Shown: positions 5,301-47,345, counted from the stretch's first letter. The stretch: 52,569 bases of DNA from a virus (IMGVR_UViG_3300046807_000026:1-52569), one strand, 5' to 3'. Program-made: numbers and translations. Notes: generated by a model not told the origin, from the sequence alone.

Positions 5301-7493
5301 TCTACTGATGGAAATACTTGGAATAATGCCCCAGTTCATTCAAACTTAAACTTGTGGTCAGTAGCAGCATCTAATACTGCTTTGAGTACTTCTGCGGAAG
5401 TAACGCTACTGGTGAATGGTAATGGTGTTAATAATGGAACAATCTTTACTGACAGTAGTTCTAATGCATTTGTCCCTACAGTTTTTGGTAATGCTATAAC
5501 AAGTACTGCTCAAAGTAAATTTGGTGGATCATCAATGTATTTTGATGGTAGCGGCGATGTTATTAGATATGTTGATGATAAAAAATTTAGATTTGCTTCT
5601 TCTGATTTCACTTTAGAATTTTGGATTTATCCTACAACTACAAGCGGATCGAGAGTTTGGGTTACTACTGCTGAACCAAGTGATGGTCAGGGTTTGTATG
5701 TAGGTGCGAATAATGCGTCATTGCAATTAGCTGTAGGAAATGGTTCATTTTTTATAAATAATAGTTTTAGTTCATTTACTGCAAATACATGGATGCATGT
5801 TGCTGTTACAAAACAAGAAAACATATATAGAGTATTTAAAGATGGTGTACTTGTATTTTCAACAGTAAATACTACAGTACTTAGTAATACTAATAATGCA
5901 ATCTATATTGGTGGAAGATTGAATCCAAGGGCGTTTAACAACTATGCTCAAGGTTACATGCAAGATGTACGATTAGTAATGGGACAAGCTTTATATACCA
6001 GTAACTTTTCTGTACCAACTGCAGCTTTAACAACAACCATTCCAAATACTTCAGTTAAATATGTAGCAGGTGGAGCATCTGGTGTTACACTATATTCAAA
6101 TGATGCAAACTCTTGGTATGGTGGTTTCAGTACTTTCAGTCAAATAATTTCTGACATAGAATGGACAGGTTCCAACTTTGTAGCATGTGGTACTAGTTTT
6201 CAAGCTGCTGGTGGAGGTGGAGATTTTATTGAAACTTCTTCCAATGGTATTAATTGGACTGAAAGAACGCCCGGTTTTGGTAGCTATGTTGGTATTAGTT
6301 ATGGTGGTGGTAAAACTGTTATGACAGATGGTACTAGAAGTTTAGTATCATCAGATGATGGTCTATCTTGGAAACAATATACTGTACAACGACCAAATTA
6401 TGCCAATGGAGGTTATTCGGTAGCGGCTGCTGTAGATAATGGAGTATACGTAAATGGAGAACATGCTTTTCATGGAAGTTCCGGTGTACTTTATTCAACA
6501 GATGGTAATATCTGGAATCAAGGTGGTTTCTTTAGTAATGTACAATCAGAAGGTCCAAGATGGACGGATGTTGTTTGGACTGGTGTAAATTTTGTTTGTG
6601 TAGCAGGTAATACATTCTCATGGGATAACGTAGCATACTCTCCAGATGCTGGATATTGGAAAGGTTCTAGACTACCCTACGCTTCTCAATGGACTACGGT
6701 AACCAGCAACGGAACTTTGTTGTTGGCTAGAGATAGCATGTTAAACCAAGTATCAATATCAAATGATCATGGTGTTACTTGGTCTAAAGCATATCCATTA
6801 CCATTTTCACCAACTAACTTTATTGACAATACATTAGGTTTATTTATTGCTCTTATAAACGGTGGTTCATGTTATACATCTACTGATGGTATTAATTGGA
6901 CAGCTAGAACTATGCCGGGAAGTTATAATTGGTACGATGGTTTATGGACAGGTTCAGTATTTTTAGCAATTACAAGTAATTCTACTATTGCTGCAACCAG
7001 TATTAATGGTGTTACTTGGACCAGTTTAACTTTACCGGGAGTTGTTTCAGCAGGTATCGGTGAAAATATGGCATATGGTGGTGGGCGAATTATTATTGTT
7101 GCAGGTACAACTTGTTACTACAGTGATAATAATGGAACTACTTGGGGGACTGCTACAGTACCAGCTACTCAAAATGGTTATTACGGTGTTTCATATCTTA
7201 ACGGTAAATTTATTACTGTTCCTAGATATTTTACAGCAGGAACTGATCTTCCAAGATATAGTTCTGATGGTATAACTTGGTACATGGGTAATACCACAAG
7301 TACAAGTATTTCAGATTCATCCATTGCTAGTAATAGTACAGTGAGTATTATAGTGAGTGCATATACAGATTTACCTTATATTTCATATGATGGTATTAAC
7401 TGGTTGCAGTATTCAGTTACTCCAAGTACACAAGAGTATGTTGGAACTACTACAACATTTGTAGGTAGCAATTCATTTATAGGACAAAAATAA
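2370..7493 (+). CDS. Giant adhesin / receptor-binding protein: Asp-box (S-x-D-G-x-x-W) beta-propeller repeats plus a LamG/concanavalin-like domain
   Basis: Dozens of SxDGxxW repeats; LamG signature FTLEFWIYP...WMHVAVT...GYMQDVRL; ATGA overlap with the upstream gene. Confidence 0.75.
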   Translation: MTFSAKISQKNAIPGSDFYTTLDGRSKNTVSSDGNNTLVVGSLGIIDFSNDNGLTWYASKSYPSIGAGTVNKIIYANGQFVAATTVGIYISKTGDAWYRTVSTNFHSIQYNGSIYVGAAGNGVFSSTDLITFTSRKTTTRGGTADIVWTGVAFIVTFSGNGIVFRSTDGINWTLSNQTLDTYTFSYDGTSWLAHSSYGYGRTSTDGINWNTCIDGLTQSQLPTQTIWDSTNSRYVASLGNLTSLTGSGHMATSMDGKTWTNRLTDASNAYLGIARNANTFVGVGYTGKIAYSTDSGTNWTKLPKSFLLPASSWNWCTGNSSRFIASGNTATAMVVSSDDGISWDIRVTSTTFAGYTLTGAGYVVWNGTMFVGIISTSTQSRTIYSSDGITWTMGGALPSLGSWTALAWNGSVWATVRSGSNAAAYSTDGINWTSATLPVSANWNHGAGIIGGRITCCVDSAITTVYTTDGITWTQGSMSASRSWQGMASNGTRLVATAYSSSVAAVSTDGITWTEYALPVSTTWQRVASTGTAFCVPSNSSAIVAVSTDGQTWVQKAIGFTGAGPCGASSNRFCVLAFSSSSSSVSFNNGNAFATPPGNFAWNSVTYGNSKFLAVGSSGSTATSVDGINWSYNVKVPVAYTLPTSINWGPIVSDGTTTVISNGPQLTNTTYLSSTNSGDSWTQRAFPVNTLWSPYSCLYANGTWVFVAASAGWANLLTSSVLYSSNGTTWNTSSIPSNQVSCLTYGAGKFLVTTTSSQSYQSVDNGVNWTSFFLTSSGPWQAGAYGASKFVFAVGGPNTISNKVVYGDVGNWTETTLPLSKNWMKMLWTGSMFILIGGWNTYTNEYLTSTDGISWTVRTFPISSTWINAALDSSNNICVISGGAVANNKTLVSSDGINWKVGILPSSSQWFGLAWTGTNFITSVGGSVSSNVYAMSPDGISWSLSSNTGIPSPNAFRKVIYDNSKFIAVGDTGSIATSTDGNTWNNAPVHSNLNLWSVAASNTALSTSAEVTLLVNGNGVNNGTIFTDSSSNAFVPTVFGNAITSTAQSKFGGSSMYFDGSGDVIRYVDDKKFRFASSDFTLEFWIYPTTTSGSRVWVTTAEPSDGQGLYVGANNASLQLAVGNGSFFINNSFSSFTANTWMHVAVTKQENIYRVFKDGVLVFSTVNTTVLSNTNNAIYIGGRLNPRAFNNYAQGYMQDVRLVMGQALYTSNFSVPTAALTTTIPNTSVKYVAGGASGVTLYSNDANSWYGGFSTFSQIISDIEWTGSNFVACGTSFQAAGGGGDFIETSSNGINWTERTPGFGSYVGISYGGGKTVMTDGTRSLVSSDDGLSWKQYTVQRPNYANGGYSVAAAVDNGVYVNGEHAFHGSSGVLYSTDGNIWNQGGFFSNVQSEGPRWTDVVWTGVNFVCVAGNTFSWDNVAYSPDAGYWKGSRLPYASQWTTVTSNGTLLLARDSMLNQVSISNDHGVTWSKAYPLPFSPTNFIDNTLGLFIALINGGSCYTSTDGINWTARTMPGSYNWYDGLWTGSVFLAITSNSTIAATSINGVTWTSLTLPGVVSAGIGENMAYGGGRIIIVAGTTCYYSDNNGTTWGTATVPATQNGYYGVSYLNGKFITVPRYFTAGTDLPRYSSDGITWYMGNTTSTSISDSSIASNSTVSIIVSAYTDLPYISYDGINWLQYSVTPSTQEYVGTTTTFVGSNSFIGQK

Positions 7494-32309: not shown

Positions 32310-32440
32310 GGTTTTGTTGATTTATCTTTTTTCTTCTTATGCAACTGACGATGTTCATACAGCATCTTAATTGCAACAGCATACATTGTTACAATAATGG
32401 CTACCAGTATCAGTAAACTAGTTACTTGTAAAATAATCAT
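32306..32440 (-). CDS. Small membrane protein (44 aa, not in the ORF track)
   Basis: MIILQVTSLLILVAIIVTMYAVAIKML...; RBS aagga; overlaps the upstream stop. Confidence 0.45.
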   Translation of the reverse strand: MIILQVTSLLILVAIIVTMYAVAIKMLYEHRQLHKKKKDKSTKP

Positions 32441-33000
32441 TTACTATCCTTTTCTTTGAGTTTAGGGTCCAGCATAAATTCCAATAGGAACATTGCATTA
32501 ACAGCCACAGCAGCCATGTGAAGCATATCTGGTACGCTGCTATCGGTGTCATACAGTTCGCCTCTTCTATGTGCCTCTAAATGCCTGTAAAGAGCATCTA
32601 GATATCGCTGTTCAGCACCCTGTACTTTCTTCCAGTTATCTCGTTCTTTGTACTTTTTAAGACCGACTGTAAGATTCTTAGCAATTTGTTCTAATGCATG
32701 AGATGGAATTAAGCTATATTGTAACTTATCCTGATCATACTTAGTGCCAATTGGTTGGTTTTCTTGCATAGTAATTGTACTTGTAGGTTGCCAATCTTTC
32801 ATTTGCTGAGTGCTTGATCGTAAGTCTACTGAAGCTGGTACAAAATATGAATCAGTTTCAGAACAACTCATGATTCTATTTGCTTCTGTACAACCTCTAC
32901 TATCATTGCGAAATGCACACGAATTACATTCGTAAACACCTTCTTTATCCAATACTGGTGTATAAACTTTACCTTTAACTGTAATATCTTTTAAACTCAT
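32437..33000 (-). CDS. dATP/dGTP diphosphohydrolase-like protein (DUF5664 family) with Cys-rich N-terminus
   Basis: GTKYDQDKLQYSLIP...G-x-KKY...NW...YLDALYRHL...H; start at MSLKD after RBS aggagg. Confidence 0.75.
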   Translation of the reverse strand: MSLKDITVKGKVYTPVLDKEGVYECNSCAFRNDSRGCTEANRIMSCSETDSYFVPASVDLRSSTQQMKDWQPTSTITMQENQPIGTKYDQDKLQYSLIPSHALEQIAKNLTVGLKKYKERDNWKKVQGAEQRYLDALYRHLEAHRRGELYDTDSSVPDMLHMAAVAVNAMFLLEFMLDPKLKEKDSK

Positions 33001-33001
33001 T

Positions 33002-33505
33002 TCAATCCTCCTTAAATCCATTTTCAAGTAGTTCTTTAGGAATGCAATTGCTAAGATCATTACTCTCAAAGTCAATTGGCTTCATAACTTTATCGTTGTG
33101 GTTTTTGATAACAAACAAATCATAGTTTGAATTGTACTCTACATTTACCACAATACCATCTTCTTCATATTTCTGAGCAGTTTGAATCGCTGTCAATTCT
33201 TTTGCTGGAAACTTAGTTAAATTATTGTATGCAGTATCACGCATCGCTTTATTACCATCGACACCAAGTTGTTCTAGCTTTTGCAATAAACCCAATGCTG
33301 TAACTAAAACATCAATTACACCATCTACAACTTCTTTTGCATTGTTCTTGTCAATACCTTTTTCTTTAATTTCTTTAGTTTCCTCTAGAATTAATTTGTA
33401 TTGAAAATCAATATCTTTTAAAGCAGTGAGATTATGCTTACCTGCAATTTCATTGAAAGCATAGCAGTCTAGTTGGAAATCTGAAATATTGTAATCAGTA
33501 ATCAT
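33002..33505 (-). CDS. MazG/PRA-PH-like NTP pyrophosphohydrolase
   Basis: LILEETKE...EVVDGVIDVLV...NNLTKF...KVMKP. Confidence 0.7.
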   Translation of the reverse strand: MITDYNISDFQLDCYAFNEIAGKHNLTALKDIDFQYKLILEETKEIKEKGIDKNNAKEVVDGVIDVLVTALGLLQKLEQLGVDGNKAMRDTAYNNLTKFPAKELTAIQTAQKYEEDGIVVNVEYNSNYDLFVIKNHNDKVMKPIDFESNDLSNCIPKELLENGFKED

Positions 33506-35611: not shown

Positions 35612-36582
35612 AATATAATTCCTCTTTCATCCATAAAGTCATATACATCACTTGGATCATTCCAACTGCGTTTCATATAAGCGCATTTCCAATACAAGTT
35701 CAGCATGTCTTTCCAAGTTGCGTTATGTTCTTGACCATGACAATCAGTGTACTGAAATTCATCAGGATACAATCTCTTGAATTCAGAGAACATGATCTGC
35801 ATGATTTCTTTTTCTGTACTAGCATCGAGTAATGCTTTCATTGCATAGCTAGGTCCATATCTGATCTTGGACAACTCATAACCTTTATAAGTATCAGCAG
35901 CATCACCAGATAGTACTTGTAAGGCTAAGAACTTTAAACCATTACCTTTGACTGTGCTTTTAACTTTATACAGTGTACCAACATCAGGTATCAGTTCAAT
36001 CTTTGGATTATCTACAGTCCAGTTAAAGAGGCTAATTCCTTGGCACTGGTAGCTATCCTTATCTACGCTTGCTAACACGGCTTCCTGACCGTTATAGAGG
36101 GCTTCGTAGGAGCGTATGGTGACTACATCATCTACCTCTAAACCATTATCAACAACCTTTGCTTTGTACTTGCGTCTTAGATGATTTCTAACAGCAGTCA
36201 AATGCACAGGTCTAATGTTGTCCTCTCTGTTGCTTTTATAAGGTGAAGGCAAAGGTAACTTATGTCTGAAGGTTTCTCCACCACCAATATAAATCTCAAC
36301 ATCGTCACACCAAGTTGACTCCATAAGTTTTTCAATGCTCTTGTTTGCAGTACTGATGGCAAATGAAATATCGACAGGATGCTGATGATCTGTAATCTCA
36401 TAATCTTCTGCTTTAAATTCCATTTGTTTGTTTTCTAGAAACTTCTTGAATTCAGTTCTTGTATCAAACTCTTTTTCTCTACCTGATTTTAAATGCTTTA
36501 CAATAACTGTACGAGTCTCAGCAGCGGCAGCATGTTTGTACGCCACTAGATCACCATCGACAATTAAGAGTCTTTTACTCAT
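35608..36582 (-). CDS. 5'-3' exonuclease / flap endonuclease (T7 gp6-like)
   Basis: IVDGDLVAY, YKSNR, LEVDDV, SVDKD, GDAAD motifs. Confidence 0.85.
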   Translation of the reverse strand: MSKRLLIVDGDLVAYKHAAAAETRTVIVKHLKSGREKEFDTRTEFKKFLENKQMEFKAEDYEITDHQHPVDISFAISTANKSIEKLMESTWCDDVEIYIGGGETFRHKLPLPSPYKSNREDNIRPVHLTAVRNHLRRKYKAKVVDNGLEVDDVVTIRSYEALYNGQEAVLASVDKDSYQCQGISLFNWTVDNPKIELIPDVGTLYKVKSTVKGNGLKFLALQVLSGDAADTYKGYELSKIRYGPSYAMKALLDASTEKEIMQIMFSEFKRLYPDEFQYTDCHGQEHNATWKDMLNLYWKCAYMKRSWNDPSDVYDFMDERGIIL

Positions 36583-36935
36583 AGGCTCTTCTCCTTTATT
36601 AGATATACAAATACTTCCAGTCCATGTTGTCTAGCTTGTGTAATCATGTTTGCAGTACCTTTACTCTCACCGTCCCATACAGCAATCAATGCATCTGCAT
36701 ATTCAGCCATCTGTAGGTTACGCAATGGTCCAGCACGTTTACCATACTTGTTCCAATCTGCAGGAAATCTTTGAATTGAAATACCATTATCTTTGGCAAA
36801 AAGTTCACCAAGATAGTCTACACCTTTGGCAGCACCTGAAACAATTTCTGTAGCTTGAAAACCAGATTTATGGTATGCAGTTTTTACAACATTGTAATCT
36901 GTGATATTTCTACCACCAGCAATAATAACCTTCAT
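36579..36935 (-). CDS. SLOG-family (YspA/DUF2493-like) protein
   Basis: IIAGGR, IVSGAAKGVD, AGPLRN-x-x-M, WDGESKGT. Confidence 0.85.
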   Translation of the reverse strand: MKVIIAGGRNITDYNVVKTAYHKSGFQATEIVSGAAKGVDYLGELFAKDNGISIQRFPADWNKYGKRAGPLRNLQMAEYADALIAVWDGESKGTANMITQARQHGLEVFVYLIKEKSL

Positions 36936-37426: not shown

Positions 37427-38068
37427 TCAAAATGGGATATCTTCTTCATCTTCAGCAGCAACTTCAACCTTAGCACGAGCTTTTGGCTTTGCTTCAGCTT
37501 TAGGAGCAGCTTTTGGAGCTTCTGCTTTTGGTTCATCATCGAACTCACTACCAGCTTCATAAGCAGCAGTTTCATCCGGTACATATTCAATCATGTCAGT
37601 GACTAGAACGTTCTTCAAGTACAGTGAAGTAGTACCGTTGGTGCGTTCAAACTTATCAATACTGATTGAACCGTAAGAACCATTTGCAGGTAACTTGCTG
37701 TTGGTAACATCTACTAGAGCTTTGCCAACTTTCTCAAACACTTTTGGTTTGTATAGATCAGGTACAGGCTTACCAGTTTTACCTAGCTCTGTGCTCTTGC
37801 GTAGAGTAACTACCCAAATGTTTTTACCGGCATCTTCTGGAGGTGCTACTTTATAGATTGATTCAAATTCAACAGTCTTGACTTTCTTGATTGAAGTCTT
37901 GGCAGCAATATTCTTAGTGAACTCTTCGTATTGATCTAGAATATCTTCATCTGTAATTGCTACAGAAGCTTTCCATTCATCTGGCTTTGCTGGCTCTCCT
38001 GCTTTAACGTAAGCTTTTTGAGGCTTGTTTAGTGACACATAGAGAAGCATACCTGTTAGTTTTTGCAT
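37427..38068 (-). CDS. Putative single-stranded DNA-binding protein
   Basis: Acidic tail ending EDEEDIPF; NGS motif; own strong promoter. Confidence 0.65.
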   Translation of the reverse strand: MQKLTGMLLYVSLNKPQKAYVKAGEPAKPDEWKASVAITDEDILDQYEEFTKNIAAKTSIKKVKTVEFESIYKVAPPEDAGKNIWVVTLRKSTELGKTGKPVPDLYKPKVFEKVGKALVDVTNSKLPANGSYGSISIDKFERTNGTTSLYLKNVLVTDMIEYVPDETAAYEAGSEFDDEPKAEAPKAAPKAEAKPKARAKVEVAAEDEEDIPF

Positions 38069-38131: not shown

Positions 38132-38160
38132 ATTATATCAAACTGCAAATGCTTTGTCAA
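38132..38160 (-). promoter_or_regulatory. Consensus sigma70 promoter
   Basis: TTGACA-N17-TATAAT. Confidence 0.85.
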
Positions 38161-38179: not shown

Positions 38180-38254
38180 TGGTGGGTCAGACTGGACTTG
38201 AACCAGCACTATCTCGATTATGAGTCGAGGGCTTCACCTTTAAGCTACCGACCC
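38180..38254 (-). tRNA. tRNA with CAT anticodon; probably Ile2 (lysidine, reads AUA), alternatively elongator Met
   Basis: Cloverleaf with anticodon arm CTCGA-CTCATAA-TCGAG, T-arm with TTCAAGT loop and encoded CCA. G1-C72 excludes an initiator. Anticodon and T arms resemble bacterial tRNA-Ile2. Confidence 0.88.
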
Positions 38255-38566
38255 TTATTCGTAAACTGTAACTGTTTTCTGTTTTGGTTCTACAAAAGCA
38301 AAACCTTGGTATTCTGTACCGTAGTGCGATGCATACCAACCGTAAAACTTAACAAAGCATTGTTCACCGCCTTTGCTAAATTTCCATACACACCAGTAAT
38401 CAGAACCTTGGTCTTCACCACCATATTGATCAACTGATTCATAAACAATTAGCTGATTATCTAATGCAGTTTCAGCATCACCTTCGCAATATTCTTGCAT
38501 CATGCATTTCAAGGAATCTTCATCTAATTCCTCAAATATGATCTCTAAAGTTTTTTTAAGACTCAT
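38255..38566 (-). CDS. Hypothetical protein, paralog B
   Basis: YGGEDQGSDYW...KFYGWYAS; start MSLKK after RBS aggag. Confidence 0.7.
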   Translation of the reverse strand: MSLKKTLEIIFEELDEDSLKCMMQEYCEGDAETALDNQLIVYESVDQYGGEDQGSDYWCVWKFSKGGEQCFVKFYGWYASHYGTEYQGFAFVEPKQKTVTVYE

Positions 38567-38576
38567 ATAACACTCC

Positions 38577-38933
38577 TTATTTCTTTTCAAACACAGTGAT
38601 TGTTTTTTCTACAGCTTGTACTTCGTAGAATTCTTCATAAGTTGAACCTTCATAAGATGCATACCAACCATCAAACTTGATGAATACAACTTCGTTTCCA
38701 TTAGAGAATGAGTATACCCTCCAATAATCAGAACCTTGGTCTTCGCCACCGTAGCGATCTACGAGTTCAAAACTGATGTTAGCTTCTGCAAGTTGTTTTC
38801 TAAAGTCTTTTACAGTTTTATAATCCCAACTATCCTCTCTGGATTTAAACTCACCATTGTGAAACTCATCTTTAACTTCAGTATCAGCTTTAACAAACAG
38901 TGCATTGATTTTATTAATCAAACGTTCAGTCAT
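38577..38933 (-). CDS. Hypothetical protein, paralog A
   Basis: YGGEDQGSDYW...KFDGWYAS. Confidence 0.7.
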   Translation of the reverse strand: MTERLINKINALFVKADTEVKDEFHNGEFKSREDSWDYKTVKDFRKQLAEANISFELVDRYGGEDQGSDYWRVYSFSNGNEVVFIKFDGWYASYEGSTYEEFYEVQAVEKTITVFEKK

Positions 38934-39406
38934 ATTACTCCTTTAGTAAAATTTGTTTTTGGATAATAGATACTATCCGCTTCAAGTCTTGCTCGAATTG
39001 CATCTTCAAGAGACTCACCATAATATAACAGAATTTGGACGCCATTCTTACTTATTCTAGCTTCATACATATTTCTGTCTTTTCTCCATCTGACACCTCG
39101 CACTCCTATGGTGTTTTCTTTTCTTAGATTTCGATCATAAGATTGTACACTTGTTGTAGCCCACTCACAGGTTTTTTTACTATATATTTTAGCAGAATTG
39201 ATTCTATTTAAGGTCATACCTTCTGGTCGCAAACCCATGTCTTCCATGAAATTTTCAAAATCATACCATCTTTTACAAACTACAATACCTTTACCTCCAT
39301 ATTTGTCATAATTTGTATTATTAGGGTTATTACATCTTTGTAACATGTTGGTCCAACTATAATAAGTAGGTGTACCATACATTCCATGTTTTATTTTACG
39401 TCCCAT
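38930..39406 (-). CDS. HNH-type homing endonuclease with AP2-like tail, possibly degenerate
   Basis: HGM...W-x-x-M-x-x-RC...YGGKGI-x-VC-x-RW...F-x-x-DMG-x-RP...CEWAT. Confidence 0.75.
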   Translation of the reverse strand: MGRKIKHGMYGTPTYYSWTNMLQRCNNPNNTNYDKYGGKGIVVCKRWYDFENFMEDMGLRPEGMTLNRINSAKIYSKKTCEWATTSVQSYDRNLRKENTIGVRGVRWRKDRNMYEARISKNGVQILLYYGESLEDAIRARLEADSIYYPKTNFTKGVI

Positions 39407-40208
39407 TCAACACCTTTCTAACTGTAACAAATTTATTTTCATCATACAAATCTAAAACATCAGTATAATTATCTATTGCGTAAGAACGAAACCAACCAGA
39501 ACATAGTGTAGTACAAATCTTATTTACTGACTTGTAAAACGCTAGTTTAGATGGTGTTTTCCAATCGCTAGGTACTAAAAACCTTTCAGTTGAAATAACA
39601 TAAGCTTCTTCTGCAATGCATCTAAGTTTGTCTGCATGGCTTAGATTGTACCACAGATTTTTATCACACCACGCTAAACTTGAATCTTTTTGCAATTTTT
39701 TATACAAAGGCTCTTCGTGATAAGCAAACAATTCATGCAAGTAATCATGATTGTACTTCTTAGTTACTGCATCATCAAAGAAATCTTCTACTGTTTGCAT
39801 CAAGTTTGGATTACCTTGTGGATATGCTGACATAGTAAGCTTAATTCGTTTGTGCAATATATCTTCATCCTTGTCGGTAAAGAACGGACGAAATACTTTT
39901 AAGTACGTATTGTATTGTGTCATATGCTTTTCAAACTTACGATCACGCCATAGGTGACTGCGCTTGACAATTGCAAGACCAATAGGGTTAACTACATAGA
40001 CTCTTTGACCTCCAATTGTAATGTAGTGCGTACTGGCATAATTCAATAGATCGTAGTTACCAATTGTATCAAACGTATGATTTTCAATACGCAAGGCACG
40101 ATCTTGAATTTTATGTTCGCTAATAATATCCCAATCTGAATCTGGTCTTACTTTGAAGGTAGCACTCCAGTATTGTAATGCTTGTGAACCAATCAGTAGA
40201 TTTTTCAT
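39396..40208 (-). CDS. Putative nucleotidyltransferase-fold protein
   Basis: N-terminal LIGS...DWDII resembles the pol-beta superfamily hGS...DxD signature; RBS aaggag. Confidence 0.5.
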   Translation of the reverse strand: MKNLLIGSQALQYWSATFKVRPDSDWDIISEHKIQDRALRIENHTFDTIGNYDLLNYASTHYITIGGQRVYVVNPIGLAIVKRSHLWRDRKFEKHMTQYNTYLKVFRPFFTDKDEDILHKRIKLTMSAYPQGNPNLMQTVEDFFDDAVTKKYNHDYLHELFAYHEEPLYKKLQKDSSLAWCDKNLWYNLSHADKLRCIAEEAYVISTERFLVPSDWKTPSKLAFYKSVNKICTTLCSGWFRSYAIDNYTDVLDLYDENKFVTVRKVLNGT

Positions 40209-40220
40209 GTTTACTCCTTA

Positions 40221-40545
40221 GTTATAGTTCAGTATATTCCGTATCTTAGTTTCAGTTAACTGTCTAGGCGCAAACAGGCCATCGTCCAACTTTAACCCAA
40301 ATAGTAAACCACGTTCGTTTACCCAACCTGAAATATACTGAACTATAACCTCTGGTCCCTAAACCAGTATTATAGTGTCTTTTCCTATTGGACGACAATC
40401 CGCAGGTCTAAGAAATCCGAATGCGAAGTCCACCATCACTCGCATCTTTTTCCAATTCCCCGCTACGCAGGGAGGTTGATAGGGCTTGCACCTACCTCGG
40501 GTTGTACTCACTTCTAGGGATATGAAGCTTGCAGAGAACCGGGAC
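40221..40545 (-). ncRNA. Unassigned structured RNA (one ~330-nt RNA or two adjacent RNAs)
   Basis: No ORF in the track; higher GC than flanks; many stems including a perfect 18-bp inverted repeat (40221-38/40332-49) and a T-loop-like hairpin; lies in a tRNA operon. Confidence 0.55.
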
Positions 40546-40553
40546 TAATTTTA

Positions 40554-40643
40554 TGGTGGACAAAAGGAGAATTGAACTCCTGTCTTCCTCCTATGCTATT
40601 AGGAAGTTTCACATCAGCATCAGATGATTAACCCATCTTGTCC
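40554..40643 (-). ncRNA. tRNA-like RNA lacking canonical D and anticodon arms
   Basis: Acceptor stem GGACAAG/TTTGTCC plus ACCA; T-arm AGGAG-TTCAATT-CTCCT; non-canonical middle. Confidence 0.7.
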
Positions 40644-40648
40644 ATATT

Positions 40649-40725
40649 TGGTGCGAGTGGAGGGATTCGAACCCCCGACCAATGGTGTAGAAGACCAGTG
40701 CTCTATCCAACTGAGCTACACTCGC
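40649..40725 (-). tRNA. tRNA-Arg(TCT)
   Basis: GCGAGTG acceptor, D-arm GCTC-AGTTGGATA-GAGC, anticodon loop CT-TCT-AC, T-loop TTCGAAT, encoded CCA. Confidence 0.95.
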
Positions 40726-40734
40726 TTAACCTCA

Positions 40735-40764
40735 ATTATACATCAGTTTTCAATCCCATGTCAA
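40735..40764 (-). promoter_or_regulatory. Promoter for the tRNA/ncRNA operon
   Basis: TTGACA-N18-TATAAT, about 10 nt upstream of tRNA-Arg. Confidence 0.75.
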
Positions 40765-43647: not shown

Positions 43648-45381
43648 TTAATTTTGGTTGTTCAACCAGTCATCTAAGTTATGCAAAGTATGCGTATCGT
43701 TATCATAGTAGACGTTACCAGCAGGTCCAGTCAATCCACAAATACGATTCTTACTAAGTACAACTTTGGTTGTATTGCGTTCGGTTGGGTCTTCTGCGTA
43801 TTTATTTCGACTTAGCAAGATATTAGCTGAAGCTGACTTAATAATAGTAGAACTACCCTGAATTTCTTCTTCTGTGAATGCTCCACCTTGTGAAGAATTT
43901 TGTACTCCAGAAGCTGATTTACGAACGTGGTTAATAAAGATCAAAGTTACATTGTGACTCTTAATGATACCTTTGGACCATTTCATAAATAATGCTTGGT
44001 CTTCATTTGATAAACCATCAAGAATGTCCTGTAAAGGATCAAGCACAATGATTCTACAACCGCATGATACTACAAGTTCTTCTACTGTATCTTGAATCTC
44101 TTCGATTGTACCATCACGATTATCAAGTAGGTAAAAGCGATGCTGACCATCTTCATTGTAGAAAAGCTCGTTTGCTTTATCACGTACTTTGTCAGATTCC
44201 AGCAAATCTTTCTTTGCATTATCATCTTGAATTAACGATAGCTTACGACTCAAATGCCGACCTAATAAAGTCTCTCCATATTGACCTGAATCTAACTCCA
44301 TAGAAACAATACCGATTTTATGCGGTGAATTGAAAATCCAGTGATAGATCATTTCATTAACGAAAGATGTTTTACCAAGACCAGTACCTGCAGCAATATT
44401 GATGATGTGACCCAATGGTAGACCACCAACAAGCATCTCATTCAGTGTATTCATGAATGGTGGAAACGGTACTTTCGCAACTGTAGCTTGAGCTAGAATC
44501 TTATCGTACAGTTCACCAGAACCAAGTACACCAACTGGTGTGTATCGCTTTGCTTCATAGAAGTTACGTACAAACTCTTCCTCTTTACCTTCTTCAAGAT
44601 AAGTATTAGGGTCTTTGTATCGCATGTGCATAATCTTAACTTTACCCTTAGGTAGAGCCTTGACTACTTCTTCTGTTGCTTCTTTACCAGCTTTGTCATT
44701 GTCATAGCACACAATAATTTGATCGAAGGTGTCGAAGAAACGATATTGAGCAGCAATTTGTTTGTGTGAATTAGCACCTGTAGTAGGGCTAACAACAGCA
44801 GTTTCATAACCAGAACCACGATTCTTGTTATAATCCGAAAGCATTTGATAAGCAGATAACGCATCTAGTTCACCTTCTGTGATTAGAATATATTTTCCAC
44901 CACGGTTAAATTTAAACTGCATGAACAATTCGCATTCAGCACCAGTGCGACCTTTGGAATAAAAGTTCTTTGGTACTTCACGGATTTTGTATCCTACAAT
45001 CTGACCATCTTGAGTAGCTGGATAATATTGCTCTTCAACATCACCATCTTCATCATACGCATAACGTACACCAAAAGGCTTTGTGGTTTCATCTCTTAGT
45101 CCACGAAAACCTTTACCAGCAACACCAGTTATAGATTTGATATAATCATTCTCTTCCAGTGTCATAGCAGGTTTACCACTAGGTTTAATTTCCATACTCT
45201 TTTCTTCCTTTGTAATTGATGTTCTAACTCGTGTAGTCTTCTTGGAATTTTGTTCCTTGAATTCACTAGATGGTACAGTATGTTCACAGACAAAGCAATG
45301 CGAAGAATTTCCTTCATACACTGCTTTGCCATCTGAACTACCGCACTTTTCGCAATTGGTGTGCTTTACGAAATTTGCCAA
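43648..45381 (-). CDS. Primase-helicase (T7 gp4-like)
   Basis: Zn finger CEKC...CFVC; TOPRIM TEGELDA and DNDKAG; Walker A GTGLGKTS; INHVRK and KNR motifs. Confidence 0.93.
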   Translation of the reverse strand: MANFVKHTNCEKCGSSDGKAVYEGNSSHCFVCEHTVPSSEFKEQNSKKTTRVRTSITKEEKSMEIKPSGKPAMTLEENDYIKSITGVAGKGFRGLRDETTKPFGVRYAYDEDGDVEEQYYPATQDGQIVGYKIREVPKNFYSKGRTGAECELFMQFKFNRGGKYILITEGELDALSAYQMLSDYNKNRGSGYETAVVSPTTGANSHKQIAAQYRFFDTFDQIIVCYDNDKAGKEATEEVVKALPKGKVKIMHMRYKDPNTYLEEGKEEEFVRNFYEAKRYTPVGVLGSGELYDKILAQATVAKVPFPPFMNTLNEMLVGGLPLGHIINIAAGTGLGKTSFVNEMIYHWIFNSPHKIGIVSMELDSGQYGETLLGRHLSRKLSLIQDDNAKKDLLESDKVRDKANELFYNEDGQHRFYLLDNRDGTIEEIQDTVEELVVSCGCRIIVLDPLQDILDGLSNEDQALFMKWSKGIIKSHNVTLIFINHVRKSASGVQNSSQGGAFTEEEIQGSSTIIKSASANILLSRNKYAEDPTERNTTKVVLSKNRICGLTGPAGNVYYDNDTHTLHNLDDWLNNQN

Positions 45382-45390
45382 TTCTACTCC

Positions 45391-46419
45391 TTATTCATTT
45401 TTGATCAACCATTTATTTGAGATAGCCTTAAAACTACGATCATGAATACTGTTACTCTTGAATACAAGACCTTCACGTTCAGAAGCATTAAGTTCTGATT
45501 TACCTTCAGCTTGTGCAAGAATACCTGAAACACTTTCACCTACAAGCGAAATGTCTTCAGCAAGAATTGGTACATGCTTTAGACCCAAACGCTCACATGC
45601 AGCTTTAAGCTGGACTGGCAAGATATACTGTGCCGTATGAGTATTGTACATGTCATAGACGTAGAAGTCAAGCTGAGTTTTGTACTGATTACCTTGGATG
45701 CCTTCACCAATCATCTCACCTTGAATTGCCATACCCTTCATAAAATTACGGCGCATAATATCCTCAATTTGGAACTTACGTGCTACTTTCCAGAATGAAT
45801 TTGCTTCATCTTCTTTCAAGTCAAGATTACGTGAGCATACATGGAATACGTCTTCATCGTCTAGATAGAACGTGCAAGATGAACCGTCAAGTTTTTCAGT
45901 AATAGACCAAGTATCTTCTTGGAATATACCATTGAATTCTTTTACAAGATTTTGTACACGCTCTTGGTCAGTCTTTGGTACTAACGTAGGGAAATTGCCT
46001 CGTGCCATACCAGCAAGTTGAGCATTCATTGGACGTTCCCATTTGATGATATTTAACCACTCAGTTACATCGTCACCTTCACTCAAGGATGACCAACAGC
46101 CTTGCTTTTCAACACATGAGGAAATAGGTAGCAATAAACCTTGTGAAATTTGACCACGTAGTTTAATTGTACGTAGACGTTCACCCTCTACACCTTCAAA
46201 TACTTTTGGAAAGTGTCCAGCTTTGGTTAGAAATGGTGCAAGGGCTGTTGGAACCCACGAATCCGGTTCCGCATACACAACCAAATCGTTAATTTGGTAC
46301 TTACCAACTGAGTCAACTACCCACCAGCCATCTACACGATAAGCACAAATTTTATCTGCACCTTCAATAGACTTTACTTCTGCAATTTTACGAATCGTTG
46401 CGAGTTTTCTTTCTGTCAT
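45391..46419 (-). CDS. RNA ligase (Rnl2 / DRB0094 family)
   Basis: N-terminal RKLATIRKI...LRGQISQGL; PKTDQER, TEKLDGSS, QGE, REGLV, FKAISN. Confidence 0.9.
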   Translation of the reverse strand: MTERKLATIRKIAEVKSIEGADKICAYRVDGWWVVDSVGKYQINDLVVYAEPDSWVPTALAPFLTKAGHFPKVFEGVEGERLRTIKLRGQISQGLLLPISSCVEKQGCWSSLSEGDDVTEWLNIIKWERPMNAQLAGMARGNFPTLVPKTDQERVQNLVKEFNGIFQEDTWSITEKLDGSSCTFYLDDEDVFHVCSRNLDLKEDEANSFWKVARKFQIEDIMRRNFMKGMAIQGEMIGEGIQGNQYKTQLDFYVYDMYNTHTAQYILPVQLKAACERLGLKHVPILAEDISLVGESVSGILAQAEGKSELNASEREGLVFKSNSIHDRSFKAISNKWLIKNE

Positions 46420-46430
46420 TTGTTTCTCCT

Positions 46431-47345
46431 TTACATATCATCCTTATGTCGAATGCCGACCAGTACTGGAAAGCGAGGTAGATTATAACCTGTTCCAACG
46501 TCAAAGTACTTAACTTTTGCAAGTTGACCCATCAATGTTTCCCTGCGTTCCCACAAGTCTTCTCGAATTGCGTCAGTCATACCACTACCACAACTGAATG
46601 TATCGCCTTTAGAGGTGCGTAGAATCAACGATCCCATTGTGTCTAGGGCTACCATACCATCTTTAGCTGTAGAGCGTTCTGTGCGTCCTAGCTCATTAAT
46701 CTTTGCAGCGTTAGTATTTGTGTACTTAGGCTCCCAACCAATGATTTCAAATTCGTTATCAACAAAGCGTTTGACCTTTTGTAGTTCTGGATTCTTAGTA
46801 CCAGAGCGACCACGTTTATATTTAGCATCGGTATCACGAATCATAACACCTTCTGCACCTTGAGCCAGCATTTCCGCTTCAAATTCATCAAGCTGCTCAT
46901 CACATGATATAGAATAGTGCGGTAATACTTCTACTCGCAATGGTAAACGATCATCACGATCCATATTAACCAAATGAGCGTAACGCTCCAACCAAGTAGA
47001 TGTAGGATGAAAGCGGTCAAATACCCAAAAAGTAAAATCTGGTTCACCCTCAATACGCATAACTCCAGAAGTACTTTGATTAAATACATCAGGTGCGTTC
47101 TTATTACCAATGATTAGTTCACCATCTAGGCCATCCAGTAAACCACCTGTCCATTGGTTCTTAAAATAAGCTTGAATAAACTTGTTTGGAATTGGTTTAA
47201 GGCTACGTGAGTAAGCTACACCACCGAATACAATGCAGCGAATACCGTCAAGTTTTTCTGACATATAACGGTTTGTTGGTTGTGTTTTGACTTTAGTTTG
47301 CTCAATTGCAAGCTGCGGCTTAAAGCCTTCTGGAATTGTCATCAA
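46431..47345 (-). CDS. ATP-dependent DNA ligase
   Basis: EKLDGIR, LDGEL, EGVMIR, K-x-K, RFPV motifs. Confidence 0.92.
   Translation of the reverse strand: MMTIPEGFKPQLAIEQTKVKTQPTNRYMSEKLDGIRCIVFGGVAYSRSLKPIPNKFIQAYFKNQWTGGLLDGLDGELIIGNKNAPDVFNQSTSGVMRIEGEPDFTFWVFDRFHPTSTWLERYAHLVNMDRDDRLPLRVEVLPHYSISCDEQLDEFEAEMLAQGAEGVMIRDTDAKYKRGRSGTKNPELQKVKRFVDNEFEIIGWEPKYTNTNAAKINELGRTERSTAKDGMVALDTMGSLILRTSKGDTFSCGSGMTDAIREDLWERRETLMGQLAKVKYFDVGTGYNLPRFPVLVGIRHKDDM

Follow-up and report, generated by a model that had tools for sequence, protein, structure and literature searches.

It has been known since the study of T4 that phage tRNA clusters contain additional small RNAs of unknown function. RNAs C and D of T4 have tRNA-like ends and are processed by RNase P, and tRNA repair by Rnl1 and Pnkp of the same phage counters PrrC. 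In the Pol-beta-type nucleotidyltransferase superfamily, the signature motif is a helix-capping hG[GS] followed by DxD on the next strand, with a third acidic residue on the strand after that. The small structured RNAs of T4, whose role is unknown, lie among the tRNA genes and are transcribed with them (PMC3014915). A further group of relevance is the MenT enzymes, which add nucleotides to tRNA acceptor ends and whose C-terminal motifs III and IV carry a catalytic Lys and Asp; the hG[GS]...DxD definition is paraphrased there as well (PMC10435456). Here we analyze a stretch of viral DNA in which elements reminiscent of these systems stand side by side, positions 38180–40764 of the virus record IMGVR_UViG_3300046807_000026. 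The window is the whole record of 52,569 bases, estimated by CheckV to be about 66% complete, and the element in question is a minus-strand gene for a 270-amino acid (aa) protein of the DUF7275/DUF7277 family set among tRNAs, structured RNAs and small protein genes.

The closest named relative of the window phage is Limnohabitans phage DC31, a freshwater siphophage of 76 kb. An earlier note on the stretch had proposed a single operon forming a tRNA protection or repair module or an RNA-guided system. Comparison with related phages gives no support to a single RNA–protein or tRNA-repair system. The reading that we favor, to which as a whole we attach about an even chance, is that the stretch forms one transcription unit, from promoter to promoter, within the replication arm of a freshwater siphophage akin to DC31, and that it is a mosaic island, in which an island of tRNAs and stable RNAs stands beside a separate enzyme–partner module, the parts having separate histories and probably separate jobs. 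New here are two RNA families, the structural assignment of a widespread phage protein family, and a tight enzyme–partner gene pair. Every element that the earlier note had placed on the minus strand (promoters, tRNAs, tRNA-like RNA, noncoding RNA, 270-aa gene, HNH gene and paralogs) is present there, in the order tRNA-Arg(TCT), a spacer of 5 nucleotides (nt), the tRNA-like RNA, the large RNA, the 270-aa gene, the HNH gene, the two paralogs and tRNA(CAT):

40735–40764, minus strand: sigma-70-type promoter, TTGACA-18-TATAAT, 12 of 12 consensus positions
40649–40725, minus strand: tRNA-Arg, anticodon TCT, CCA encoded (ARAGORN; Rfam RF00005, 70.5 bits)
40554–40643, minus strand: tRNA-like RNA (TLE), 90 nt, CCA-ending, coordinates set in this analysis, 12 distinct copies aligned
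40221–40548, minus strand: structured RNA of ~330 nt (the large RNA), from alignments, RNAalifold and covariation
40369–40398, minus strand: promoter-like site inside the structured RNA, TTGTCG-18-TATAAT, 10 of 12 positions
39396–40208, minus strand: 270-aa protein (the enzyme), Pfam DUF7275 (E 1.1e-55) with DUF7277; phrog_2141
38930–39406, minus strand: HNH endonuclease gene, phrog_374 (E 1.8e-46), overlapping the stop of the 270-aa gene
38577–38933, minus strand: paralog 1, 118 aa, phrog_8206/18295, small alpha+beta protein, model pLDDT 91.5
38255–38566, minus strand: paralog 2, 103 aa, counted from the ATG behind AAGGAG, same PHROGs as paralog 1
38180–38254, minus strand: tRNA, anticodon CAT, CCA encoded (ARAGORN; Rfam, 64.3 bits)
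38132–38160, minus strand: next promoter, sigma-70-type, TTGACA-17-TATAAT with TG, 12 of 12 positions

Compared with the described systems, the locus is similar to the T4 tRNA cluster (rnaC, rnaD) in that structured RNAs lie among phage tRNAs and free-standing homing endonuclease genes occur in the region. It differs in phage family and host, and in carrying a ~330-nt RNA with a predicted loop–loop pairing and a three-way junction as well as a tRNA mimic lacking a D arm, a comparison made at the level of architecture. With MenT/AbiEii (DUF1814) the 270-aa protein shares a two-lobed form, an N-terminal Pol-beta-type core, the hG[GS]...DxD motif and an adjoining small gene, with structural Z values of 6.9–7.4; in contrast to that group the partner lies downstream and has another fold, there is no AbiEii profile match, and the enzyme gene is found in lytic-type phages and giant viruses rather than in bacterial toxin–antitoxin loci. 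The likeness to T4 Rnl1/Pnkp is that the phage encodes tRNAs of its own together with a nucleotidyltransferase-superfamily RNA ligase (PF09414), whereas the ligase here is Rnl2-type with a PHA02142 OB domain, and nothing links it to the studied unit. The tRNA-like RNA has in common with tmRNA and viral tRNA-like structures a T arm, an acceptor-like stem, a terminal ACCA and the absence of a working anticodon arm; it weakly resembles the acceptor piece of tmRNA (19.8 bits), with no tag frame. Alanine acceptors have a G-U at the third acceptor pair, unlike the A-U found here. The HNH gene behaves as free-standing phage HNH homing endonucleases do, with a family match, insertion between conserved genes and presence/absence polymorphism, and nothing about it is unusual. 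A literature search for tRNA-like decoys in phage tRNA clusters returned nothing pertinent, and a comparison with the Mom protein was dropped as irrelevant, that protein having a GNAT fold.

The strongest linkage in the stretch is between the enzyme gene and the small paralogs. A partner-family gene lies 3' of the enzyme gene in all 66 enzyme-seeded IMG/VR loci with at least 1400 nt of downstream sequence (80 such loci in all, 14 being too short downstream, 7 of which still show the partner), and the reverse search, seeded with the partner, finds the enzyme gene immediately upstream in 74 of 78 loci, with three lacking it and one too short. This constant linkage in both directions makes the enzyme–partner pair the only unit-like part of the proposed operon. 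The two paralogs of the window are 42% identical to each other. The partner is predicted to fold as a small alpha+beta protein with a curved sheet, for which the matches are weak and NTF2/IraD-like only (best Z 5.1), and it has no Pfam support, 0 of 39 members having a shared family. ESM Atlas leads for the partner (Tad3, 0.83; T4 Y04K) fall below the bar of the tool and are not confirmed by Pfam. Complex prediction of the enzyme with paralog 1, both entered as alignments, gave a score of 0.00 and a mark of 0.32, which is evidence neither way. The T4-like enzyme homologs have other neighbors, and their downstream genes are unrelated to the partner. In one relative (locus L105, 1133–2281) a single 382-aa open reading frame (ORF) fuses the enzyme to the partner domain; this contig holds a second enzyme–partner copy and may thus be a chimera of two phages. 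One subclade carries a 161–165-aa protein between enzyme and partner (L056, 1125–1619; L062, 944–1435; L065, 4806–5303; L102, 1737–2222), which contains a diverged copy of the C-terminal sheet of the partner. The HNH gene that separates the pair in the window is missing at this spot in 20 close relatives (DC31 and 19 from IMG/VR), and a 62%-identical HNH gene occupies the same junction in two of the 80 loci (L072 and L073, both distant relatives), so that on sequence grounds it is a free-standing mobile insert with presence/absence polymorphism.

The tRNA-like RNA folds into an acceptor-type stem of 4–6 bp (four invariant pairs and two weak ones), 10 unpaired, variable nt where a D arm would be, two hairpins and a T stem. 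Hairpin 1 has 4 bp and an invariant loop UGAUGCU, with compensatory pairs at 3 of 4 positions; hairpin 2 has 7 bp and an invariant loop AUAGCA, with compensatory pairs at 2 of 7; the T stem shows compensation at 2 of 5. The 3' end, GUCCACCA (discriminator A plus CCA), is invariant in the 12 distinct copies. Overall, 7 of 22 pairs show compensatory change and 95.5% of alignment cells are paired, as against 47–59% in slid controls, a pattern which indicates that the structure is under selection. The RNA scores 18.4 bits against the Rfam tRNA model RF00005, below the gathering threshold of 29, and ARAGORN makes no call. Neither loop fits a normal anticodon loop, UGAUGCU having a G in the place of U33 and the other loop having only 6 nt. 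Against the tmRNA models RF00023 and RF04321 the scores are 10.1 and 19.8 bits (gathering threshold 47), and ARAGORN finds no tmRNA; a permuted two-piece tmRNA was ruled out, as the RNA closes on itself and ARAGORN gives no tmRNA. The position of the tRNA-like RNA varies among close relatives, being either behind tRNA-Arg, as in the window, or behind tRNA-Met downstream of the paralogs. In four of 18 pattern-matched records it lies within arrays of 6–19 tRNAs, and no enzyme homolog was found in these four records, which are fragments 4–62% complete (the same search found the enzyme in three of three positive controls). The tRNA-like RNA thus belongs to phage tRNA clusters as an independent member.

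The second RNA is larger. What the earlier note had described as ~330 nt of structured noncoding sequence is indeed structured, but as one RNA with long-range pairing and not as a loose succession of structures. The stretch has no credible reading frame. When the segment from tRNA-Arg to the enzyme was aligned for 11 phages, 25 of 65 pairs showed compensatory change and 96.3% of cells were paired, compared with 35–43% in slid alignments, and none of 500 shuffles reached the observed values, indicating selection for structure. The 5' domain contains a hairpin with the loop AUAUCCCUA at 40515–40523, and the RNA also has a T-loop-like hairpin and a variable inserted hairpin. A later hairpin has the loop UUUAGGGA at 40356–40363, complementary over six bases to the AUAUCCCUA loop. 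RNAalifold pairs the two loops, and these positions are invariant or changed on one side only (G-U), with no double changes, which makes a loop–loop pseudoknot likely, not proven. A closing stem of 20 bp (40330–40349 with 40221–40240), invariant in both strands, encloses a three-way junction and ends 1 nt from the Shine-Dalgarno sequence AAGGAG (40214–40219) of the 270-aa gene. The 5' loop accompanies the 3' core in 25 of 25 distinct contexts, which supports a single RNA of ~330 nt. Thirty IMG/VR stretches, with enzyme proteins 42–91% identical to that of the window, share an unchanged core 25-mer. A 3-kb search of Rfam 15 gave no match over 40221–40548 at gathering threshold or at E ≤ 10, and 15 relative loci showed tRNA matches only. 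Group I intron, RNase P RNA, 6S, T-box, HEARO/omega RNA, ROOL/GOLLD, Y RNA and hammerhead were set aside, having no Rfam match and, where compared by eye, an unfitting arrangement; a looser 17-mer scan returned four extra matches, all chance hits inside coding repeats. Judged by their covariation, which is sound in both cases, the tRNA-like RNA and the large RNA are two RNA families absent from Rfam 15.

The 270-aa protein matches DUF7275 with 188.9 bits (cut-off 27) and DUF7277 with 26.9 bits, just below the cut-off of 27, and both domains are matched by all 38 aligned homologs (E ≤ 1), out of 606 homologs of similar length. The AlphaFold model (pLDDT 90.9) consists of an N-terminal nucleotidyltransferase-fold domain and a helical C-terminal domain. 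The hGS...DxD signature noted earlier is borne out by the alignment of 38 sequences, where Leu-5, Ile-6, Gly-7, Ser-8, Asp-25, Asp-27, Glu-42, His-44 and many C-terminal residues are invariant; in the model Gly-7 and Ser-8 lie at the junction of strand 1 and helix 1 and Asp-25 and Asp-27 on strand 2, as expected for hG[GS]...DxD. The invariant Glu-42 is on strand 3 of the model and is a candidate for the third acidic residue. Foldseek against the PDB placed MenT1, a fungal nucleotidyltransferase-like protein, ANT(2'')-Ia and TglT at the top, all weakly (best E 3.3e-3). A VIA search of 48,161 chains gave MenT1 at Z 7.4 (root mean square deviation 4.0, 125 aligned), MenT4 at 7.1, TglT at 6.9 and ANT(2'') at 6.7, followed by 5uvd, 4ok0, 2ewr and LnuA and, beyond the first ten, by unrelated helical proteins. 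Eight of the top ten are nucleotidyltransferase-fold enzymes (Z 5.1–7.4) and the other two are AbiE-type antitoxins (6y8q, 1zel); MenT1, MenT4 and TglT are the only matches covering both domains (model residues 1–245/247). Among viral models, the matches are other DUF7275 proteins, including giant-virus ones, and then, weakly, poly(A) polymerases.

From the model we conclude that the enzyme has a nucleotidyltransferase fold in which the metal-binding motif is intact, and that its nearest structural neighbors are the MenT group, in agreement with the fold anticipated in the earlier note. By sequence it is not a DUF1814 member: the AbiEii profile PF08843 matches none of the 38 members, and nothing in the record, at E ≤ 1. 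Searches of PDB sequences with phmmer and with a profile of the enzyme gave chance matches only (E 0.5–1.5), no other Pfam family is common to its members, and no longer fused forms were found, which is weak evidence; an ESM Atlas lead to DUF6036/AbiEii is likewise weak and below the bar of the tool. Lys-82, Lys-150, Lys-230, Asp-146 and Asp-155 are invariant in the 38 sequences and are at most candidates for the C-terminal catalytic Lys and Asp of MenT. The DUF7275 family occurs in at least 734 phage records, including T4-like phages of E. coli, and also in giant viruses, and we found no mention of it in the literature under that name. By analogy with the MenT neighbors, which extend tRNA acceptor ends, the most likely substrate class is an RNA 3' end, and it is possible, though we hold it tentatively, that an end of the acceptor-stem type is what the enzyme acts on.

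The other parts of the stretch are separable. A covariance model of the large RNA matches 28 of 56 enzyme loci, neither of two T4-like loci and none of four loci with the tRNA-like RNA only, and all loci with the large RNA come from one phage group with shared gene order. In some loci tRNA-Met or other sequence parts the large RNA from the enzyme gene, and in L053 another gene and two tRNAs do so. The association with tRNAs fades as the proteins diverge: a tRNA lies within 1 kb in 20 of 22 loci with at least 57% protein identity, then in 10 of 14 and 7 of 16, and tRNAs bracket both sides in 14 of 22, then 3 of 14 and 1 of 16. Among fully flanked enzyme loci, 11 of 52 have no tRNA at all. In the comparison of homologs in IMG/VR that the earlier note had called for, the large RNA is thus always upstream of the enzyme where found, in 28 of 56 loci, and tRNA proximity fades. 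The idea that the promoter-to-promoter unit is one functional module is not supported, given that the HNH gene is mobile, the tRNA-like RNA moves, the large RNA is found in half of the loci and the bracketing decays. Nothing points to an RNA-guided system. Repair of the T4 type finds no counterpart in this ~66% complete record either, there being no Pnkp-type profile match and the ligase lying among replication genes.

On the mosaic-island reading, tRNA-Arg(UCU) and tRNA(CAU) would supply decoding capacity to an AT-rich phage, as established phage biology leads one to expect. The tRNA-like RNA and the large RNA would be cut from a common precursor by tRNA-processing enzymes, perhaps with RNase III acting at the 20-bp stem, and would be the counterpart of RNAs C and D of the T4 tRNA region. 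The DUF7275/DUF7277 enzyme would add nucleotides to an RNA 3' end of the acceptor-stem type, its small alpha+beta partner, in one or two copies, could be a regulator or a specificity subunit, and an HNH homing endonuclease would have landed between the two. The presence of the RNAs and the enzyme on one transcript in this clade may be explained by inherited gene order, and the evidence does not require that they cooperate.

Several observations weigh against this reading. Two concern the enzyme: the fold scores are middling (Z below 8) and may reflect a common arrangement, and no sequence profile links the protein to a named nucleotidyltransferase family. The others concern the separation of the parts. 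In all 26 exact-core copies that extend far enough downstream (four more are too short) and in all 28 covariance-model matches, the large RNA precedes the enzyme gene on one and the same strand, and it has never been seen without the enzyme. As an outside test, all tRNAs were located in 15 named phages of different genera, taken evenly spaced from a tblastn match list. Seven of them have a tRNA within 10 kb of the DUF7275 gene, as against 3.14 expected from random placement (P 0.016), and five have one within 5 kb, as against 1.92 (P 0.027), statistics that ignore kinship, seven of the phages being Straboviridae (three near, four far). In Shewanella phage Thanatos-2, the only two tRNAs of the genome, Arg-TCT and Met-CAT, start 11 nt after the DUF7275 gene. 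Taken together, the constant position of the RNA, the excess among the 15 phages and the layout of Thanatos-2 suggest that more than inherited order ties the enzyme to tRNAs, a real but modest indication that the function of the enzyme family involves them in some way. The Thanatos-2 tRNAs are not close in sequence to those of the window, and a recent transfer of an enzyme–tRNA cassette between DC31-like phages and Thanatos-2 was ruled out, the acceptor stems differing and the proteins being ~30% identical. The three observations that suggest such a tie also favor the integrated module of the earlier note, in which the enzyme acts on or with the co-transcribed RNAs, whether in CCA extension or repair of the phage tRNAs, in marking the tRNA-like RNA as a decoy for nucleases or transferases of the host directed at acceptor ends, or in a particle with the 330-nt RNA and the paralogs, all of which might be envisaged. 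The MenT neighbors add nucleotides to tRNA acceptor ends (PMC10435456), the tRNA-like RNA retains the parts that MenT-type enzymes read (T arm, acceptor stem and encoded ACCA), and an RNA ligase lies 5 kb upstream. Nevertheless we consider such a module improbable: its parts are separable, the large RNA accompanies the enzyme in just half of the loci of the group, the tRNAs are 11.7–82 kb away from the DUF7275 gene in eight of the 15 named phages, the enzyme family extends to giant viruses and many phages, the ~66% complete record holds no profile of a Pnkp-type kinase/phosphatase, and the ligase sits among replication genes beside a DNA ligase and a primase-helicase. A related account, which we would give little credence, is a counter-defense kit of enzyme, partner, tRNA-like RNA and 330-nt RNA, with the RNAs as decoys or scaffolds for host enzymes by which tRNA ends are cut or blocked, and with the enzyme, as a phage-borne relative of tRNA-end nucleotidyltransferases acting on acceptor-type 3' ends, rebuilding or masking those ends; it would explain why DUF7275 recurs beside tRNA-Arg(UCU) and tRNA(CAU) in unrelated phages.

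The 330-nt RNA could alternatively be a cis-acting leader of the enzyme–partner operon, a sensor of a ligand, a tRNA or a protein or an RNase III site that controls how the downstream mRNA is translated or how stable it is, and not a free RNA. This would agree with the 20-bp closing stem stopping 1 nt short of the Shine-Dalgarno sequence, with the location directly upstream in most loci, and with conservation of the RNA far beyond that of the protein (the 25-mer being identical at 42–91% protein identity). The spacing makes it a doubtful proposition, however, since the gene starts 207–225 nt past the core in nine of 26 exact-core loci, as opposed to 112–139 nt otherwise, with tRNA-Met filling the gap in the four of those nine that have an ARAGORN call, and since the RNA lies 745–970 nt upstream in L053, L102 and L104. 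Moreover, the Shine-Dalgarno sequence lies free of the structure, and there is no terminator after the large RNA. The mosaic arrangement may also hold with an enzyme that does not act on RNA but nucleotidylylates a small molecule or a protein, like ANT(2''), LnuA and MNT-type enzymes of this fold, perhaps in host takeover or counter-defense; the small paralogs would then serve the enzyme as target, inhibitor or sponge-like partner. ANT(2'')-Ia, LnuA and uncharacterized minimal nucleotidyltransferases are in the VIA top ten, the partner fold has weak NTF2/IraD-like matches (Z 5.1) together with the below-bar Tad3 lead, and many phages without a tRNA in the vicinity carry the family. MenT1, MenT4 and TglT are nevertheless the best matches and alone span both domains, the genes show a mild excess near tRNAs, and members of the partner family share no Pfam family, making a non-RNA substrate unlikely.

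The present analysis defines two further RNA families of the phage tRNA-cluster type, a tRNA mimic that keeps the end-recognition half and a large RNA with a likely loop–loop contact. It also gives a first structural reading of DUF7275/DUF7277 as a nucleotidyltransferase nearest to tRNA-end modifiers, which within one large clade is obligately paired with a small partner. Should the enzyme and the RNAs cooperate, they would represent a novel type of phage response to immunity directed at tRNAs; otherwise, three independent unknowns have been separated that had looked like one system. Bench study is possible, as DC31, for which a cultured phage–host pair exists, carries the large RNA, the enzyme and the partner.

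The unit is bounded by two perfect promoters, and between 40764–40735 and 38160–38132 no terminator-like sites were found on the minus strand. A 75-nt segment with the promoter at 40735–40764 is kept in relatives at 79–91% identity. The earlier claim of a single promoter is consistent with these bounds, but the weaker 10-of-12 site at 40398–40369 within the large RNA makes it likely and not certain. One hexamer of this site falls in a covarying hairpin loop and the other in an invariant single strand, and its -10 is changed in relatives to TACAAC (L131) or TATAAA (L130, L123), which makes a promoter role doubtful. The sequence AAGACACTATAAT was rejected as a promoter: it is unique in the window, with matches below chance expectation, and its -10 is not kept across relatives. 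None of the listed data sets containing the stretch is recorded as RNA. Four runs labeled RNA-Seq that contain 5–9% of its sequence words consist of contigs, and three of them are flagged "probably DNA". Cover by these contigs is mostly on tRNA-Arg from other organisms, and two short ones overlap part of the large RNA and then diverge into unlike sequence. The available text of the DC31 paper does not mention the region, and its supplementary tables may annotate these ORFs (PMC12195039).

Among the 44 ORFs of the window, AGA is the commonest Arg codon (37% of Arg codons), and the G+C content of the window is 36.9%; a phage-borne tRNA-Arg(UCU) is the expected remedy for an AGA-rich, AT-rich phage. 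The tRNA(CAT) is either tRNA-Met or, if modified with lysidine, tRNA-Ile. Some relatives have a tRNA-like gene of 99–102 nt directly after tRNA-Arg(TCT) (L004, 2575–2673; L007, 2344–2442; L016, 2327–2425; L017, 2882–2981; and L091, where it lies ~620–530 nt upstream of the enzyme gene). This gene, absent from the window, is called Arg-acg or Pyl-cta by ARAGORN and scores 40–50 bits as an Rfam tRNA; it is long enough to suggest an inserted segment or an intron. In DC31 (L001, 5724–6145) the conserved promoter, together with the first bases of tRNA-Arg, is separated by an HNH-like ORF from the 3' half of that tRNA; 5724–5799 is still called a tRNA by Rfam (44 bits) and looks recombinant or rebuilt. 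Two features annotated "tRNA-OTHER" open a tRNA array in Gordonia phage Cucurbita (L234, 3378–3810), 1.25 kb downstream of its DUF7275 gene, and may be further noncanonical tRNA-like RNAs.

The Rnl2-family RNA ligase that the earlier note had placed in the same genome arm is confirmed as a PF09414 protein:

45391–46419, minus strand: RNA ligase, PF09414 at 103.8 and 101.7 bits (cut-off 27) with a PHA02142 OB domain at 76.6 bits

It sits between the DNA ligase (46431–47345) and the primase-helicase (43648–45381). A Pnkp-type end-healing enzyme was sought with PF08645 (PNK3P) and PF13671 (AAA_33), and neither profile matches in the 52.6-kb record, itself ~66% complete. Behind the next promoter (37427–38068, minus strand) lies a gene for a 213-aa protein that is found in nearly all relatives and has a weak PHROG match only; it moves together with the tRNAs and is upstream of the enzyme in L053, L083, L091 and L094. 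At 36579–36935 (minus strand), upstream of an exonuclease gene, the window encodes a SLOG/YspA protein (PF10686), to which the "DprA-like" gene right after the tRNAs of Thanatos-2 (L233, 3948–4577) shows no BLAST similarity. Finally, a dATP/dGTP diphosphohydrolase N-terminal domain (PF18909, E 4.7e-26) is encoded at 32437–33075 (minus strand), and as this domain occurs in phages that replace a DNA base, the DNA of the window phage may be modified.

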